Of a DNA stretch of 64,000 nucleotides, positions 44,140-64,000 are shown in pieces. The translations under genes and the position numbers were made by a program. This stretch comes from Escherichia phage ECP2303: the sequence record PP261279.1. One strand, 5' to 3'. The notes under the pieces are model-generated. The model worked only from the letters and a program-made list of their open reading frames with translations. It was not told the DNA's origin and searched no databases. Each line of letters begins with the position of its first letter. Position 1 is the stretch's first letter.

Positions 44140-45051
44140 TTATTTTCCGTTAACTTTGTTGTAGTTTCCCTGCTCAGATGGGACTATGGTAGAAGGTCTT
44201 CCATATTCCTGGTAATACCAATCCGCAGCAGATTGGGTAACACCGTTTTCATCTGTCCACATCATAGATTTGTATGGCTGCCACTCTTCTGCAGCATTTG
44301 TGGATGCAGTGTCTGCAAATGCCCCTGTGTCCCTCTTGTTACCTACGTTACTGCCATTCTTACAATCGTTGACAGCACCTTTTTGCTGGGTCTTGCCTAC
44401 TTTCTTAGGGTTGCTGTATACAGTTGCATTAACAACCTTGTTCAAGTAGAATGTGCGGAACTCTGTAAGTTCTACATCAAACACCATCGCAGCACCTTCA
44501 CCAACAGACTTGTTGGCAGAAAGACTGGTTATGATGTAGTTCTCAAGGAGCCTCTCCTCGGTAACCAAAGAAACCAACTGGCGCTTATTAATGATCTCAG
44601 TCAAAGCCTCCAGTGCAGCGCCTGGTCGCATAGATGCTGCAGGGTTTTTAGAGTCAGTATTCCTGTCAATGTAGTTTTGCTCATAGATTATGTGTGGTGA
44701 TGTATTTACCCTACCAGTAAAAGAAAATACACCATCTTTAATTACAGCGTGGTCTGACAGGGTAGATTTATCTTCCACCGCAAAATCAGTCTTATCAACA
44801 GAATGTTTGAAAGAGTAATTCTCAATCTGATCGAAGATGATGGCAAGATCGTTAGTAAAGTTTTTGCCCTTCATCTCCGTATTGCGACCACCATAGTTAA
44901 GACCGCTGACAAACATAGTGTACTTTACATCGCTTTCAGTTTGTTGCTCTGCCTTTTCAGCCTTTGGAGATTTAACCTCTTGAGGCTTGTACAGGTCTTT
45001 TTCATCAACTATATTGCTTGGCATAACCTCTCCAGGACACTCCGATACCAT
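44140..45051 (-). CDS. Tail protein downstream of tape measure (303 aa)
   Basis: First gene after the tape-measure terminator; function from position only. Confidence 0.5.
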   Translation of the reverse strand: MVSECPGEVMPSNIVDEKDLYKPQEVKSPKAEKAEQQTESDVKYTMFVSGLNYGGRNTEMKGKNFTNDLAIIFDQIENYSFKHSVDKTDFAVEDKSTLSDHAVIKDGVFSFTGRVNTSPHIIYEQNYIDRNTDSKNPAASMRPGAALEALTEIINKRQLVSLVTEERLLENYIITSLSANKSVGEGAAMVFDVELTEFRTFYLNKVVNATVYSNPKKVGKTQQKGAVNDCKNGSNVGNKRDTGAFADTASTNAAEEWQPYKSMMWTDENGVTQSAADWYYQEYGRPSTIVPSEQGNYNKVNGK

Positions 45052-51339: not shown

Positions 51340-51816
51340 TTATTTTTGCTGTCCAATTTTAAAGGTTGCAGATTCCAGCAGCACATCGTAATGCCGCATA
51401 GCCTCGTTGAAGCCCTTCTCTTGTGCCCACTGCTCACTAACAGTAGGGTTACTAAACTGCCCAGCCTCAATAACAAACTGGATAGCTTTGGCTCCTGTGT
51501 CCCCCATCTGCTTAAGAACAGCCTCTGCACTTGATCCTCTAGCCATAGCTCTCAACAATTTTTCTGTCAAGGTCTGCAGTTGCGTGCTGTGAAATGCAAA
51601 GGCCGTCTCCATGAAATTGCGAACAGGCAGCCCGTTCCAACCGAAGTTGTGAATAGCTGCCAATGTTGCCATATTTAAGCCTGACGGGTGAGGTTCATCA
51701 TAAAAGCCGTAGGTTATTGTTTTGCTTTCAAGTTTCACAAGGTCTTTATAAAAGCGATCTAAACGCTTTAAGTTGAACCTTGTTTGACATTTAACCTTTA
51801 GCATTATATTCCTCAC
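51340..51816 (-). CDS. Head-tail connector / virion morphogenesis protein (hypothetical)
   Basis: Position between the head and tail modules. Confidence 0.45.
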   Translation of the reverse strand: MRNIMLKVKCQTRFNLKRLDRFYKDLVKLESKTITYGFYDEPHPSGLNMATLAAIHNFGWNGLPVRNFMETAFAFHSTQLQTLTEKLLRAMARGSSAEAVLKQMGDTGAKAIQFVIEAGQFSNPTVSEQWAQEKGFNEAMRHYDVLLESATFKIGQQK

Positions 51817-58063: not shown

Positions 58064-59611
58064 TTAGATAAAACGCTTGAACATAGAAGGTGATGAGATT
58101 GATGGAATCACACAAGGCAGCGCTACCTCCTCTTTCTCTAGGAAATTAATCGCAGAAGCTACACAGTCGGCCCAGTCGTCTTTTCTGTTAAATGTTGATC
58201 TTTCCCCGTTGAACTTTTCAAGTTCAGTCAGAAATGCTTCCAGAGTGTCAGGATGGAAACTGGATTTTACAATCCTCACCATTCCTTGTTGGGCAAGATT
58301 GGCAAAAGGTGAGAACCTTGTCAGTTTAGATTTGTTGGAAGGCATTGGATCTTCTTCAACCCTGAACCCTTCGGCGAGCAAGGATCTGGATGAGGTTAAG
58401 AACTCACTCTTACCTGCCTGGCCGGGGTCCACAGAAAATACGATTATGCAATCATCTCCATCAAACTGTGCCTGTTTCCTGATGATCACATCTCGTTCCC
58501 CAGCCTTTTTACAGAACTTGCCTTCCAGACCTGTGGAATACCTACCGTCATCCACGTTCTCAGGACAATAATCTCCGGACAGGTAATAAAAGCCGTCGCT
58601 ATCTTTACTTACCTTAACACTGGCGGTAAAGTCAGGAAATTTATTACCGGAAGTTCTCTCGGTCCCTGCCTTATCCCATGCCCTGCAAGATACTGATCCA
58701 AGAGGTACTCTATCGGCATCCCGAAGGAAAGATCTTTGGAAATAGTTTGCACCCTCAGGTTTGGCAAACCAGTTGCCATGAAGAAGCTGGGCTTTTTCAA
58801 GCTCTGGCAGACCTTCAAGGAAAGCAAGGTATTCTGGGTTGTCTCTCAAGCAGACAGGATTATCGAAAATTGTTGCGCCTATAAACGAGAATGACAACGG
58901 TCTTGGCTTGATCTCCACACCCAGTCCGTTAACCGTGGTGTATTTCTCTATTAACTCTTCTTTAGAGTCTCCCCAAATAAATTCACCGTCGCGTCGGATA
59001 AAATATCTTTTCTTACCACATTTCTCCGGATCTGGATACCCTTCATCGTCCAACCACCACCTAACCAGTTTGGCAAGCATGTGTTCTGAGTCGGGGTTAC
59101 AGCTGATAACCATTCTTGATGGATACTTTGACTGAGATCGCAGACGAGACATCAAATAGTCTATCTGCTCCCATTCGAATTGCGTGCCTTCATCGAAGCA
59201 AACCATGGTGTACTCAAGGCCTTGATGGTTAAGCTTATCTTGGACATACTCCATGTGGCAGTATTTTACAACGGCCCCCTTTTTGCTCCTATCCCACTTG
59301 CCAGTGCTCGGATCAAACCGTGGAAAAATAAACTTATGATCCTTCTCTCTGAACTTTGGTTTAATGTTTTCAGGCAGATCACTGTAAATAGCTACTGCTT
59401 TAGGCCATAGCCCACCCTCACCTTCCAACTGGGGAGTTGTTCTTCGGAACATAACCACAGAGCTGTGCGGGTCATCAATAATTTTAAGCGGCATTAGCTG
59501 CAAGAGGAACGACTTGCCAGACCCAGCTGCACCTCCGATCACCAAAATATCTGCATCGTTCTCTAGGATCATCTTCTGCTTTTCAGAACACGGTCCGTAA
59601 ATCTTAGACAT
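58064..59611 (-). CDS. Terminase large subunit
   Basis: 515 aa. Walker A GGAAGSGKS, Walker B MVCFDE, and a C-terminal nuclease-type acidic region (VFSVDPGQAGKSEF). Start overlaps the o-spanin stop. Confidence 0.9.
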   Translation of the reverse strand: MSKIYGPCSEKQKMILENDADILVIGGAAGSGKSFLLQLMPLKIIDDPHSSVVMFRRTTPQLEGEGGLWPKAVAIYSDLPENIKPKFREKDHKFIFPRFDPSTGKWDRSKKGAVVKYCHMEYVQDKLNHQGLEYTMVCFDEGTQFEWEQIDYLMSRLRSQSKYPSRMVISCNPDSEHMLAKLVRWWLDDEGYPDPEKCGKKRYFIRRDGEFIWGDSKEELIEKYTTVNGLGVEIKPRPLSFSFIGATIFDNPVCLRDNPEYLAFLEGLPELEKAQLLHGNWFAKPEGANYFQRSFLRDADRVPLGSVSCRAWDKAGTERTSGNKFPDFTASVKVSKDSDGFYYLSGDYCPENVDDGRYSTGLEGKFCKKAGERDVIIRKQAQFDGDDCIIVFSVDPGQAGKSEFLTSSRSLLAEGFRVEEDPMPSNKSKLTRFSPFANLAQQGMVRIVKSSFHPDTLEAFLTELEKFNGERSTFNRKDDWADCVASAINFLEKEEVALPCVIPSISSPSMFKRFI

Positions 59612-59898
59612 TAACCTCTCTCCTTTGGAAACAGTGTTCTTATATAGTCTTGCAAAATGATCAATTTAGCTCTATCATTACTACAAGACAGGTTATTATC
59701 CCTCATAATGCCAGAATTCACCGCATCTGGCGCACCTTTCTTCAAAGGGATAGCTTTAGCAGGTGGTTTCATAGCACCCTCGGGAGGTTTAACAATCAAC
59801 CTTCCTACATTCGGAGGGTCAATCTTGTATTCTCTCTCAACGCTGGTTGCACACCCACACAATAACAAGCACAAAACAACCAGTGCAGTAACTCTCAT
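59611..59898 (-). CDS. o-spanin (outer-membrane lipoprotein, Rz1-like)
   Basis: Signal peptide with lipobox (LLLCGC); Pro-rich mature part (PPNVGRLIVKPPEGAMKPPAKAIP); 95 aa; immediately downstream of the i-spanin. Confidence 0.65.
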   Translation of the reverse strand: MRVTALVVLCLLLCGCATSVEREYKIDPPNVGRLIVKPPEGAMKPPAKAIPLKKGAPDAVNSGIMRDNNLSCSNDRAKLIILQDYIRTLFPKERG

Positions 59899-60715: not shown

Positions 60716-60792
60716 TGGTCTCCACGGAGTGATTCGAACACTCGACCTCCTGATCCCAAATCAGGCGCTCTACCAAGCTGAGCTACGCGGAG
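60716..60792 (-). tRNA. tRNA-Pro (anticodon UGG)
   Basis: 77-nt cloverleaf folded by hand: 7-bp acceptor stem (one G-U), D-arm GCTC/GAGC, anticodon loop UUUGGGA, T-loop TTCGAAT, encoded CCA. Confidence 0.8.
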
Positions 60793-60803
60793 TATTTATT
60801 ATT

Positions 60804-60878
60804 TGGTGGCCCTGGGTGGAATTGAACCACCGTCTGGCGATTATGAGTCGCTTGCTTGAACCTTCCAGCTACAGGGCC
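60804..60878 (-). tRNA. tRNA-Met or Ile2 (anticodon CAU)
   Basis: 75 nt. Perfect acceptor stem GGCCCTG/CAGGGCC, T-arm GGTGG-TTCAATT-CCACC, anticodon loop CUCAUAA, CCA encoded. D-arm and the 27-43 pair are imperfect. Confidence 0.6.
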
Positions 60879-60879
60879 A

Positions 60880-60955
60880 TGGTGCTGATGGCAGGACTTG
60901 AACCTGCAACCTATTGATTACAAATCAATTGCACTGACAATTGTGCTACATCAGC
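60880..60955 (-). tRNA. tRNA-Thr (anticodon UGU)
   Basis: 76 nt. Acceptor GCTGATG/CATCAGC, D-arm GCAC/GTGC, anticodon loop UUUGUAA, T-arm GCAGG-TTCAAGT-CCTGC, CCA encoded. Confidence 0.8.
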
Positions 60956-60959
60956 AAAA

Positions 60960-61058
60960 GGTGCTAGGTGATGGAATCGAACCACCTATGTATTCAACGA
61001 CTACCTCGTCTATTTTCAGGATTAAAAATCCTCGCCCTTGCCAAAGGGCTTACCTAGC
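60960..61058 (-). tRNA. Atypical tRNA-like element (possible tRNA-Lys UUU with oversized variable region, or pseudo-tRNA)
   Basis: About 99 nt. Perfect 7-bp acceptor stem GCTAGGT/ACCTAGC, D-arm GCCC/GGGC and T-arm GGTGG-TTCGATT-CCATC. The central 46 nt holds a perfect hairpin AGGATT-TTT-AATCCT (readable as a loop UUUUUAA) plus a further 28 nt. Confidence 0.4.
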
Positions 61059-61156
61059 GCAATATGTTGACCATGTGGCTAGTCGGCGATGACGACTGTA
61101 ACATTTGATAATCCGGTTCTGCTTCCGGCTTTCGCTTAATTACAAGGTCAACAATG

Positions 61157-61247
61157 TGGCGGAGAGTAATGGAATCGAACCATCATCGAGTTATCCTCAA
61201 CGGGACGGTTTTCAAGACCGCTTGAGCACCATTGCTCCCTACCCTCC
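61157..61247 (-). tRNA. tRNA-Ser (anticodon UGA), class II
   Basis: About 91 nt. Acceptor GGAGGGT/ACTCTCC (one G-U), anticodon loop CUUGAAA, long variable arm, T-loop TTCGATT, CCA encoded. Confidence 0.65.
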
Positions 61248-61361
61248 TTTATAAATTACACTGATAATGACACTGATTTTCGAGCAGTTAGTGACTAGTA
61301 TAAACGACGATAAATATCAATGTCATTATCTGTATGATTTATGCATTTAAAAATATAAATT

Positions 61362-61448
61362 TGGTGGGGAGTGGTGGAGTCGAACCACCCGAGTCGCAAT
61401 GACAATAGATTTACAGTCTACACCGCTACCTCTACGGGATAACTCCCC
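61362..61448 (-). tRNA. tRNA-Tyr (anticodon GUA), class II
   Basis: About 87 nt. Acceptor GGGGAGT/ACTCCCC, anticodon loop CUGUAAA, long variable arm, T-arm GGTGG-TTCGACT-CCACC, CCA encoded. Confidence 0.65.
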
Positions 61449-61452
61449 AATT

Positions 61453-61527
61453 TGGCACCCCGTACTGGACTCGAACCAGTGTCAACGGCTTAGAAGGCCG
61501 CTGCTTTATCCACTAAGCTAACAGGGC
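61453..61527 (-). tRNA. tRNA-Arg (anticodon UCU)
   Basis: 75 nt. Acceptor GCCCTGT/ACGGGGT (two G-U), D-arm GCTT/AAGC, anticodon loop CUUCUAA, T-arm ACTGG-TTCGAGT-CCAGT, CCA encoded. Confidence 0.8.
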
Positions 61528-61623: not shown

Positions 61624-62082
61624 TTAACTATTGCCAACAGGCTGTATTTCTGTGGTAAATGGCATAAAAGGTGCTGGTTTTTCAGCCTCTTCTACTACCA
61701 CCTCTTCCTCTTCACCAAACATCTCATCATATTCTTCCTGCATTCGGTCTGCCTTATCAAGAACATACTCTGCAATGCTTTGACGAATATTTTGTTTGGT
61801 TTTCGGGTCCAACATCAGCTCTCTTAAAACTTTGTGAGCTTCTGGAACCATCGCTATAAAAGATTCCTTCATATCAAGGATGTTCTTCTCTAGCTGAATG
61901 GCGTTGGACTCCTCTTTCAGAGGTCTGCCTCTACGGCGACGCTTTTTAGTTGTATCCGCCATGTTTCCTCCATTATCACGTGATAGGTGGATTTTATCAC
62001 GGCAAATACTGATTGTCAAGTTCGCCGCAGGGTGGTATTCCCTGCGACTTGCCCAGCGTCCTGGACCAGCAAGACCCAACAA
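61624..62082 (-). CDS. Small basic/acidic protein, possible DNA-binding (candidate small terminase or regulator); probable true start at 61962
   Basis: Internal ATG at 61962 is preceded by GGAGG and by a consensus promoter. The product starts MADTTKKRRRRGRP (basic, AT-hook-like) and ends in an acidic tail. Confidence 0.5.
   Translation of the reverse strand: MLGLAGPGRWASRREYHPAANLTISICRDKIHLSRDNGGNMADTTKKRRRRGRPLKEESNAIQLEKNILDMKESFIAMVPEAHKVLRELMLDPKTKQNIRQSIAEYVLDKADRMQEEYDEMFGEEEEVVVEEAEKPAPFMPFTTEIQPVGNS
61991..62019 (-). promoter_or_regulatory. Strong sigma70-like promoter with adjacent palindromic operator-like site
   Basis: Minus strand reads TTGACA (62019-62014), 17-nt spacer, TAAAAT (61996-61991). 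A perfect 10-bp palindrome ATCACGTGAT (61974-61983) overlaps the predicted transcription start, with GGAGG-ATG downstream. Confidence 0.6.
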
Positions 62083-62825: not shown

Positions 62826-63404
62826 TCAACGTTCGTAGTAAATCTTATTCAACATTACCTCATCGTTTGCAGAAAGGATATCAAGATATGCATCACCAAA
62901 TCTGCCTGCAACAACCTCTGCATGATACATCACTTCGTTAACATCGTCAAGAGTGATAACCGGATGACCATATCTTTCTGAATATTGTCTCAGTGTGCGA
63001 TGTAACGAGTCGTCATCATATGCAGACTTTTTAATATCACAAACACGACGAATGGCCTTGATGTCGAAAAAACCTGTGCGATACCACCCAAGAAAAAAGT
63101 TCCGTGTAGTGTCAACATCTACATCAATACCATTAAGAACCTTATCTACAAGATAGCTGTCATCCTTTGGACTAGCGTCCTTAGTGCGAATGTAGTTGCC
63201 ATCTTTTCCAGGTGATAGCTCCTTCTCATCACCAACTTGCATGCCATCATTTGGCGGTGTTAGCCACTTATCAGGATGCTTACGATCACGAGCGTTAGAA
63301 TGATTACGCTGGAAACCTGGCTTCCACTTGAAAGTTTTCTCCATCTGTTCTTCATTCTGATAACGTTTTGCAATCTTTTCACTGGCATCTTTGCGTGAAC
63401 TCAT
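62826..63404 (-). CDS. Hypothetical protein (192 aa)
   Basis: GAGGAG lies 6-8 nt upstream of the ATG at 63404; co-oriented. Confidence 0.55.
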   Translation of the reverse strand: MSSRKDASEKIAKRYQNEEQMEKTFKWKPGFQRNHSNARDRKHPDKWLTPPNDGMQVGDEKELSPGKDGNYIRTKDASPKDDSYLVDKVLNGIDVDVDTTRNFFLGWYRTGFFDIKAIRRVCDIKKSAYDDDSLHRTLRQYSERYGHPVITLDDVNEVMYHAEVVAGRFGDAYLDILSANDEVMLNKIYYER

Positions 63405-63780
63405 AGCAGACTCCTCTTCAAGTTATAGAAAAACTCACTGTATCGCTTTGTAACGAGCTTTTCTATCAAACTGGTGCGATTGCCTTACTTGGTATAGTTT
63501 ATATAGCTGTGGAGCGATTTAGGGGCCTTCTTGTCAGTTTCCACACATAAACTTTATCCGAACTCGCGCGGGAGGCTCTCAACCGACTCCTTCCGGCGCT
63601 GGCAAGCTTTCGTCGGTGGTACACATTAGTGCTCGGCCTTTGGCCTGCGCTATCGCTTCGCTCCCACACATGTTAACAGTCCTGCATGTATGCACTTCTG
63701 TTATTGTGTGCACTATGGAGGCCCGGCATCTCGCCCCTCGTAGGCGAGTGCCAATGAAGGGCCGACACTACCCATAATAA

Positions 63781-63900
63781 GTAATAAATTTAAAACATGG
63801 TACTTAGGATCTAGTATATTCTACATAAGTTAAGTATATGTACTTTAGTACCATAAGTACTAGATCTTTTATTTTTATTATTTAGTTATTTTAGTTATAT
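63781..63900. repeat. AT-rich region with multiple short inverted repeats
   Basis: GGATCTAGTA (63807-63816) pairs with TACTAGATCT (63858-63867); palindrome GTACTTTAGTAC; direct TTATTTTAG-like repeats. No ORF. Confidence 0.6.
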
Positions 63901-63907
63901 TCTTTAT

Positions 63908-63990
63908 GTGTCCGTATCACGGACAGTTAGTGTCCGTATTACGGGCAGATGTGTCCGCGTGACGGACAGTAGTGTCCGTATCACGGACAG
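63908..63990. repeat. Array of four tandem palindromic 19-bp repeats (GTGTCCGTATCACGGACAG) at 21-22 bp spacing
   Basis: Units at 63908-63926, 63931-63948 (degenerate), 63951-63969 and 63972-63990. Each is an inverted repeat TGTCCGT-N3-ACGGACA. The array runs to the window edge and may continue. Confidence 0.8.
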
Positions 63991-64000
63991 TTACTAACCT

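Follow-up and report, generated by a model that had tools for sequence, protein, structure and literature searches.

What is the function of a 376-nucleotide (nt) segment without long open reading frames (ORFs) in a virulent coliphage, and why is part of it also carried by a small group of plasmids? The question is raised by positions 63405–63780 of the 64,000-nt stretch of Escherichia phage ECP2303 (PP261279.1) analysed here (the window), which derives from an rV5-like Vequintavirus and in which the nearby genes are all on the minus strand. The segment is single-copy and does not code for protein; it evolves under purifying selection, contains compensatory base pairs, and is common to phages and plasmids. 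A preliminary description had proposed a structured non-coding RNA, a long leader or regulatory DNA; non-coding status, conservation, retention and compensatory changes support this proposal, and they do not tell the three options apart. Vequintaviruses are widely isolated and are candidates for biocontrol and therapy, and approximately 70% of rV5 gene products were ORFans (PMC3606486). A conserved covarying element heading a long operon toward the late genes would be a concrete handle on rV5-like regulation.

A conserved non-coding segment

As the preliminary description stated, no ORF of at least 60 amino acids (aa) overlaps 63405–63780 on either strand; the longest there are 56, 53, 44, 32, and 31 aa. 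From 63405 onward the window is free of such ORFs up to its end; at 596 nt, no ORF-free run in the 64 kb is longer, and the runner-up (474 nt) is the tRNA cluster. The segment is also relatively GC-rich, as had been claimed (0.500 vs 0.444 for the window; 98.5th percentile of 376-nt windows). GC content is 0.546 in 63500–63770 and 0.200 in the adjoining 63781–63905; the proposed limits enclose a GC-rich conserved element that stops near 63766–63770, and 63771–63780 is already AT-rich. The gene at 62826–63404 is on the minus strand, so the segment does lie upstream of it.

Conservation in related genomes, which the proposal presupposed, was found. A blastn search of 50,697 phage records recovered the segment in 118 Vequintavirus records at 91–100% identity, and no other phage matched; the final 1.2 kb of the window matches Escherichia phage ECP2309 at 100% identity and the 118 rV5-like records at 91–99%. 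In other Vequintavirinae and in Stephanstirmvirinae (Mydo, SSE121, and BME3) the gene order is different. Eighteen GenBank records of “Campylobacter phage” (MG0656xx) are approximately 92–97% identical to this coliphage region, which suggests mislabelled or contaminating rV5-like phages. Scans of GTDB genomes gave no matches in a first round and, in a second, six chance matches that were rejected by a covariance model (R1, described below). A metagenome scan added three phage contigs, one phage fragment, and two further plasmid-like contigs.

GenBank records annotate small ORFs here (rV5 ORF78, of 56 aa; 56-aa and 31-aa ORFs in BASEL phages), and the 56-aa frame is open in ten of 13 relatives, so the segment might encode one or more small proteins. 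The substitution pattern argues otherwise. In an alignment of 13 phage sequences, variable columns per codon position number 14/19/17 and 8/7/7 in the small ORFs, compared with 35/21/92 in the adjacent 192-aa gene, which is truly coding. The 56-aa frame is interrupted in the three remaining relatives (L011, L012, and L004) and its changes are mainly non-synonymous; frameshifts or stops break the small-ORF frames in L011, L012, L013, and L004. The small ORFs of the element have no Pfam or PHROG match, and the nucleotides of the supposed ORFs covary as base pairs. A protein-coding gene of the rV5 ORF78 type was rejected on the lack of a third-position excess, the broken frames and the missing family matches; the small-protein reading is hardly credible and largely refuted already, which corrects spurious annotations in many GenBank records.

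Mean pairwise diversity among the phages is 0.024 in the first hairpin of the element and 0.041 in its core, vs 0.150 at third codon positions of the neighbouring gene. An IMG/VR search yielded one useful divergent relative (L004; a second hit, L005, was a chance match in a high-GC contig), from which the window differs by 0.09 in the element vs 0.34 at third codon positions. The 192-aa protein of L004 is 82% identical to that of the window, and upstream the relative has another putative initiator gene, other repeats, and an unalignable AT-rich stretch; its alignment with the window resumes exactly at GUCGGCCC and then runs unbroken to the start codon. Limitation to one genus and a rare plasmid family would fit a non-functional remnant or recombination scar, shared by phage and plasmids through chance. 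Such an origin is very improbable for an element whose diversity is three to six times below that of silent sites, in which double changes preserve pairing, and which is kept when its flanks are replaced.

Folding of the element

The two short hairpin motifs quoted in the preliminary description (GGCCTTTGGCC and GCCCCTCGTAGGCGAGTGCC) both exist, but its “many short stems” are, taken alone, barely above chance: single-sequence folding energy is modestly below that of shuffled sequences (z −2.0 for the minus strand, −2.7 for the plus strand). The structural case therefore rests on comparison with relatives. The comparative alignment that had been recommended shows compensatory changes in several helices; base pairs are kept through two-sided changes at two pairs in hairpin 1, three in the core, and two in the AAC hairpin, which gives moderate support for a structured RNA. 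Support is moderate because few lineages contribute and because most paired columns are invariant within the phages.

The element runs from 63766 to 63405 on the minus strand, between a lambda-origin-like module and the 192-aa gene, and all of its parts are described on that strand. Hairpin 1 (63717–63766) has an outer stem GGCCC/GGGCC, followed by GGCA/UGCC with a bulged A, and then by CUCGCCU/GGGCGAG with a UACGA-type loop; GCCCCTCGTAGGCGAGTGCC is its tip. It is invariant in ten phage sequences. In the homologue carried by plasmid L014, two G-C to U-A double changes keep the pairing and the fold is the same; other plasmids have an unrelated hairpin in its place.

The core domain (63566–63669; 104 nt) is a multi-helix junction closed by helix P1, which pairs GUGUGGGAG (63669–63661) with CUCCCGCGC (63574–63566) and includes two G-U pairs. 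Within it lie P2 (GCG-AUAG-CGC), P3 (GGCC-AAA-GGCC, the motif GGCCTTTGGCC), the junction AAUGUGKA, and P5 (ACCGAC, 63617–63612, with GUCGGU, 63587–63582). P5 encloses a 24-nt segment (63588–63611; GAAAGCUUGCCAGCGCCGKAAGGA) that is the same in all phages and in one plasmid type (type A, below), the sole variation being G or U within a tetraloop. Two sub-hairpins are predicted in this segment, GCU-UGCC-AGC and CC-GKAA-GG, the latter with a GNRA loop (GGAA or GUAA).

In the core alignment 94.7% of cells are paired, vs 31–47% (maximum 46.5%) when the partners are slid, and three pairs are double-changed. Both sides have changed at P5 pairs 58-89 and 60-87 (alignment A4) and, as counted, at core pair 50-56; the alternative pair 56-91, an A-U, G-U, G-C series read by eye and left uncounted, would extend P5. 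As a whole, P5 changes from ACCGAC/GUCGGU in the phage to GCUGCC/GGCAGC in the plasmids. P1 is invariant in most sequences; in the IMG/VR relative and plasmids L028 and L030 it survives matched insertions and deletions, as read by eye. The covariance model R1, built on the core, detects a single copy in each phage and each type-A plasmid, with E values of 1e-15 to 1e-25, and has no match in the rest of the window or in the Mydo, SSE121, and BME3 fragments. A CAC-UAAU-GUG helix predicted by RNAalifold is broken by a change in the IMG/VR relative and was discarded; an extended P5 or a GYG/CRC pairing is preferred.

Between hairpin 1 and the core lies hairpin 2 (63665–63710; CACACA ... UAACAG-UGCA-UACA-UGCA-CUGUUA ... 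UGUGUG), the least conserved part of the element (diversity 0.118). Its outer stem uses UGUGUG, which is also the 5′ strand of P1, so the outer stem and P1 are mutually exclusive. In rV5 (L008) and Pr121LW (L009), an 18-nt deletion (window 63692–63709) takes out half of this hairpin; the remainder can still pair CACACAUG with CAUGUGUG.

The 3′ domain (63467–63565) contains GUGUGG (63546–63541), able to pair with CCGCGC of the P1 3′ strand; a conserved GGCCCCUAAAUCGC patch (approximately 63527–63514); and a small hairpin with an AAC loop (63503–63493), in which two pairs are double-changed among the phages (A-U to G-C and U-A to C-G). The domain aligns with the sequence that follows the core in both plasmid types. 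The element is completed by a terminal 12-bp hairpin (63425–63466; AUAGAAAAGCUC/GAGUUUUUCUAU, 18-nt loop), which ends 8 nt ahead of the Shine-Dalgarno sequence GAGGAG (63416–63411) of the 192-aa gene and is nearly invariant, divergent IMG/VR relative included. No U-tract follows this hairpin, and a terminator scan of L003 4400–5700, which covers the element, found no intrinsic terminator on either strand. Both the phage element and the additional plasmid modules repeatedly show loops of the UACG, UUCG, and GNRA kinds, as is typical of RNA.

Three mutually exclusive helices are possible in all ten phages: CACACA with UGUGUG (1:2), P1 (2:3), and CCGCGC with GUGUGG (3:4). In the last of these, a U-to-C change turns a G-U pair into G-C in Aya and in the IMG/VR relative. 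The arrangement is attenuator-like, though without a terminator.

Searches for known families returned little. Rfam 15 at gathering thresholds detected only tRNAs in the whole window, so that the Rfam scan advised in the preliminary description matched no family; hits in a permissive scan of 63200–64000 were all far below threshold (best, rli43 with 22.5 bits vs 100), and a scan of the plasmids gave no match. No tRNA or tmRNA was found within the element. A group I intron was rejected, there being no Rfam Intron_gpI match and no upstream exon (what lies upstream is the AT-rich stretch and the palindromes, and no ORF extends into the element). We class the element as a new family of a known kind, a conserved structured non-coding phage element; it resembles each of the systems with which it is compared below in part.

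The RNA is assigned, provisionally, to the minus strand, because the genes run so, because P1 forms only there, and because the G-U intermediates of P5 and the AAC hairpin are valid only there; a count of wobble against A-C mismatches is biased as strand evidence, since the helices were defined on the minus strand. The minus-strand order begins with polynucleotide kinase-like ATPase and phosphoesterase genes and a 116-aa winged-helix gene; continues with four palindromes, a 20%-GC stretch, the GC-rich ORF-free segment, the 192-aa gene, and several small genes; and ends with seven tRNA genes (60716–61527), spanin genes, and the large terminase gene. In rV5, genes 81 to 27 form one long transcription unit, genes 27–66 being late genes (Kropinski et al., PMC3606486). 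With the element inside a long minus-strand unit and no terminator between it and the 192-aa gene, its RNA is most likely made within that transcript.

The same setting bears on whether the element is a stand-alone non-coding RNA, cut from the long transcript or separately transcribed in plasmids, that acts in trans as a decoy or sponge for a host defence or RNA-binding protein, or assembles with itself into a large RNA. Its “ornate” multi-domain layout (360 nt in the phage, up to approximately 600 nt in plasmids) would suit such a role, as would the tRNA cluster 1.9 kb downstream and an invariant loop that, read from the sequence, holds the self-complementary AAGCUU, GCGC, and CCGG; in plasmids, moreover, the next operon has its promoters downstream of the element, and a weak terminator-like hairpin follows the element in some plasmids. 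GOLLD and ROOL RNAs are often found near tRNA genes. Like them, the element is large, multi-domain, phage-encoded, and near tRNA genes; it differs in being smaller, in belonging to a Gram-negative virulent myophage, in being continuous into the downstream gene, and in showing no sequence or structure match to them in Rfam. The phage element is not bracketed by a promoter or terminator, the conserved block is unbroken to the ribosome-binding site of the next gene, and there is no similarity to any Rfam family; we consider a stand-alone RNA rather unlikely.

The core in 13-kb plasmids

A sensitive blastn search of complete E. coli genomes and plasmids gave partial matches only in circular “plasmids” of 13.2–13.7 kb. 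One 39.6-kb record holds three copies and may be an assembly trimer, its length being approximately three times 13.2 kb. Among 5,426 complete genomes, seven carry a 13-kb plasmid, and two metagenome contigs belong to the same group; the sequences analysed were L014, L015, L022–L024, and L028–L031 from E. coli and metagenome contigs L016 and L018. They encode a major capsid protein, a Dit-like tail protein (52–55% identity with the product of window 44140–45051), a tail-completion protein (49% identity with that of window 51340–51816), a tape measure protein (a segment of which is approximately 39% identical to a protein of this phage), an O-like Rep, and a small helix-turn-helix protein. No terminase, portal, tail tube, sheath, or replication enzyme (helicase, primase, or polymerase) was found in them. 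Because capsid, tail, and Rep genes are present while terminase and portal are absent, these replicons are probably plasmid-borne satellites of rV5-like phages, and we infer a satellite–helper relationship from their gene content. The literature searched contained no account of the element, of satellites of rV5-like phages, or of an rV5 transcriptome.

When 4.1 kb of plasmid regulatory DNA was compared with the 50,697 phage records, the sole match was 62–70 nt of the core, in 118 Vequintavirus genomes; the invariant 24-nt segment falls within this match. Four plasmids (L028–L031; for example, L029 1594–1697) have instead a type-B core, in which P1, P2, and the AAUGUGGA junction are kept and the whole P5 domain is replaced by GUCCGGAU...AUCCGGAC. 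This type was not found in phage records or in IMG/VR. The plasmids also carry a variable number of additional hairpin modules, each beginning GUGUGGG.

The core in 13-kb plasmids that have capsid and tail genes and lack packaging genes points to a satellite–helper system of a virulent coliphage, with the RNA or DNA site of the core as a likely contact point between phage and satellites. This link to putative plasmid-borne satellites is the most interesting and most testable aspect of the element.

Plasmids without a terminase make it attractive to regard the segment as a pac region, that is, as DNA recognised by the helper terminase and copied by the plasmids for packaging. They have capsid and tail proteins and no terminase or portal, and the core is the only nucleotide sequence that they share with the phage. 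Short near-identity between helper and satellite, otherwise without nucleotide similarity, is likewise seen at the cos sites of P4/P2 and the cos or pac sites of PICI/SaPI. Pac sites are often at or beside terS; no small terminase is annotated in these phages, and the neighbouring 192-aa protein has its best-scoring fold matches among winged-helix or MerR-type DNA binders, none of them significant (best E 0.19, from a model with pLDDT 51). The only weak small-terminase match belongs to a different protein, of 112 aa (61624–61962). The P4/P2 and PICI/SaPI sites are double-stranded DNA at genome ends, whereas the stretch shared here is inside a covarying stem, and in the circularly permuted phage no end has been mapped near it. 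A double-stranded protein-binding site would not be expected to show bulges, RNA-type tetraloops, or compensatory changes that pass through G-U intermediates, and rV5-like genomes are reported to be circularly permuted, with no fixed end found (PMC8407724; PMC3606486). On balance a pac function appears distinctly unlikely.

Possible function and neighbouring genes

Upstream of the element lies a lambda-origin-like module (window 63781–63993 and beyond the window end; L003 5100–5616). It comprises a minus-strand gene past the window end for a 116-aa winged-helix “replication initiation” protein (matches to PF13730 [HTH_36], DUF6945, and phrog_12838); just downstream of this gene, four 17-bp palindromes TGTCCGTnAnACGGACA (63909–63989) with 21–22-bp spacing, which are iteron- or operator-like (eight strand-matches to the motif vs 1.1 expected); and, between the palindromes and the element, a 125-nt AT-rich stretch of 20% GC with inverted repeats (63781–63905). 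An initiator gene, repeats, and an AT-rich region are the features of an iteron-type origin, and they are found in this module and not in the element; the module is thus a candidate origin. In L004 a different 143-aa ORF occupies the same position, with different repeats (TGCATCAGAT-like), in place of the whole module, and the AT-rich stretch of the window does not align with the one at the same place there.

Three lineages whose initiators are unrelated (the plasmids, the window type, and the L004 type) all have the element after repeats and an A/T-rich stretch. Its position directly after these features, next to unrelated initiators and repeats, would be expected if a transcript or displaced DNA strand of the element served replication, as a primer or R-loop RNA, in the manner of ColE1 RNA II or the T4 origin transcripts, or as a folded single-strand signal for priming or helicase loading. 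We regard such an origin-associated role as unlikely. The same applies to its extension to the plasmids, which have an O-like Rep and no helicase, primase, or polymerase and might carry the element so that the helper replisome amplifies them. The heptamer GCGAAGC, a very stable DNA mini-hairpin that has been reported at the phiX174 and G4 origins, occurs in the core (63659–63653) and again in L031. Like ColE1 RNA II, T4 origin transcripts, and ssi signals, the element is a folded nucleic acid beside an origin-like module, possibly for a dependent replicon; unlike them, it has no recognised antisense partner, hybrid-forming tract, or primer-processing site, nor was an RNase H-type or primer-transition feature recognised. 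The origin function of the repeats is itself putative, and the plasmid adjacency is weak evidence because a single large non-coding region holds all cis elements there. UUCG and UACG tetraloops are typical of RNA and not of DNA hairpins, and the AT-rich stretch is upstream of the element, whereas in T4 origins it is downstream.

We tentatively favour a cis-acting RNA docking site or switch that is read by a helper- or host-encoded factor and has been copied by the satellites; both the switch and the factor are postulated. The segment would encode a minus-strand multi-domain structured RNA of approximately 360 nt (63766 to 63405), whose 104-nt core, closed by P1, would present the invariant 24-nt segment on P5 and dock a phage- or host-encoded factor. 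Binding may fix P1 (2:3) at the cost of the competing helices 1:2 and 3:4, and the state of P1 would then set the fate of the transcript entering the downstream operon through read-through, processing, stability, or translation. During infection by an rV5-like helper, the 13-kb satellites may use their own copy of the core to respond to this factor or to titrate it, with the swappable inner domain (type A or B) setting helper specificity. A more ambitious version, possible though doubtful, is a modular RNA “handle” for communication between the virulent rV5-like phage and its plasmid-borne satellites, in which the inner domain is exchanged on a constant P1/P2/AAUGUGGA frame and, read by a helper-specific factor, determines which helper is able to switch on, replicate, or package a given satellite. 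If true, this would be a new RNA family with an exchangeable specificity domain.

Several observations weigh against a docking site or switch. The competing helices are without compensatory support, most helix positions are invariant within the phages and therefore uninformative, and the covariation comes from a small number of independent lineages (two plasmid types, the main phage clade, and one IMG/VR relative) and was read in part from hand-made alignments. Transcription of the element and its strand are deduced from sequence features, and folding energy does not separate the strands (RNAalifold, −27.0 sense vs −26.6 antisense; z −2.0 and −2.7, as above); in most plasmids the first hairpin resembles a terminator on the opposite strand. 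Plasmid sigma-70-like promoters lie downstream of the element and ahead of the first gene, so the element there is not simply the 5′ untranslated region of that operon. No candidate binding factor was identified, and the 192-aa protein gave no usable model.

A docking site or switch has parallels among known leader elements. Like lambda nut boxA/boxB and HK022 put, the element is a structured RNA early in a long phage unit, with small hairpins bearing GNRA-like loops; those elements act in cis, and a phage or host factor could likewise read this one. Nut and put elements span some tens of nucleotides, and the present one is far larger (a 104-nt core within approximately 360 nt). It also differs from them in that phage and plasmids have no conserved boxA in common in their alignment (a dedicated pattern search was not made), that neither an antiterminator protein nor terminators downstream were identified for it, and that Rfam gave no match. 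As in riboswitches and attenuators, a conserved junction is closed by a P1 each strand of which has an alternative partner; in contrast to these, no known aptamer class is present, no ligand is implied, the alternatives are without compensatory support, and none of the alternative helices is a terminator or covers the Shine-Dalgarno sequence. P4 CI RNA and P1/P7 C4 RNA, which are processed from a leader and target repeated sites, are also regulatory RNAs in leaders with repeated motifs and alternative pairing (here GUGUGGG with CCCGCGC or CCCAC); the element has no Rfam C4 match, its size and fold are different, and no immunity function is implied.

Immediately downstream of the element on the minus strand is the 192-aa gene (62826–63404; rV5 ORF77, phrog_12226). 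The protein has no Pfam match, no PDB sequence match, and only three relatives among 1.8 billion representatives; its AlphaFold model is poor and gave no significant fold match, and neither the model nor the fold search supports or excludes a role as small terminase. Its only distant homologue (50% identity; L007 4001–4564) lies on an unrelated phage-like contig beside a DNA ligase gene, where the upstream gap is 60 nt and holds no element. In the 112-aa protein encoded at 61624–61962 (minus strand), the N-terminus is very basic (KKRRRRGRP) and the C-terminus acidic; in PDB sequence searches the protein weakly matches a small terminase (7joq_I, E 0.061).

The motif TGTGTGGG occurs nine times in the window, vs 2.4 expected; it was dropped as a genome-wide signal because the copies outside the element are all inside ORFs, with no common context. 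Within the tRNA cluster, a 99-nt tRNA-like gene (60960–61058, minus strand) is given a four-base anticodon by ARAGORN and scores only 35.5 bits as an Rfam tRNA; other records annotate it as tRNA-OTHER or tRNA-Lys. The large terminase gene of rV5 is reported to be divided by introns, one with a homing endonuclease, into three segments (PMC3606486). In the region 58064–59898 of the window, one record annotates a 95-aa ORF (59611–59898) as an O-spanin, and another annotates it as a terminase fragment.

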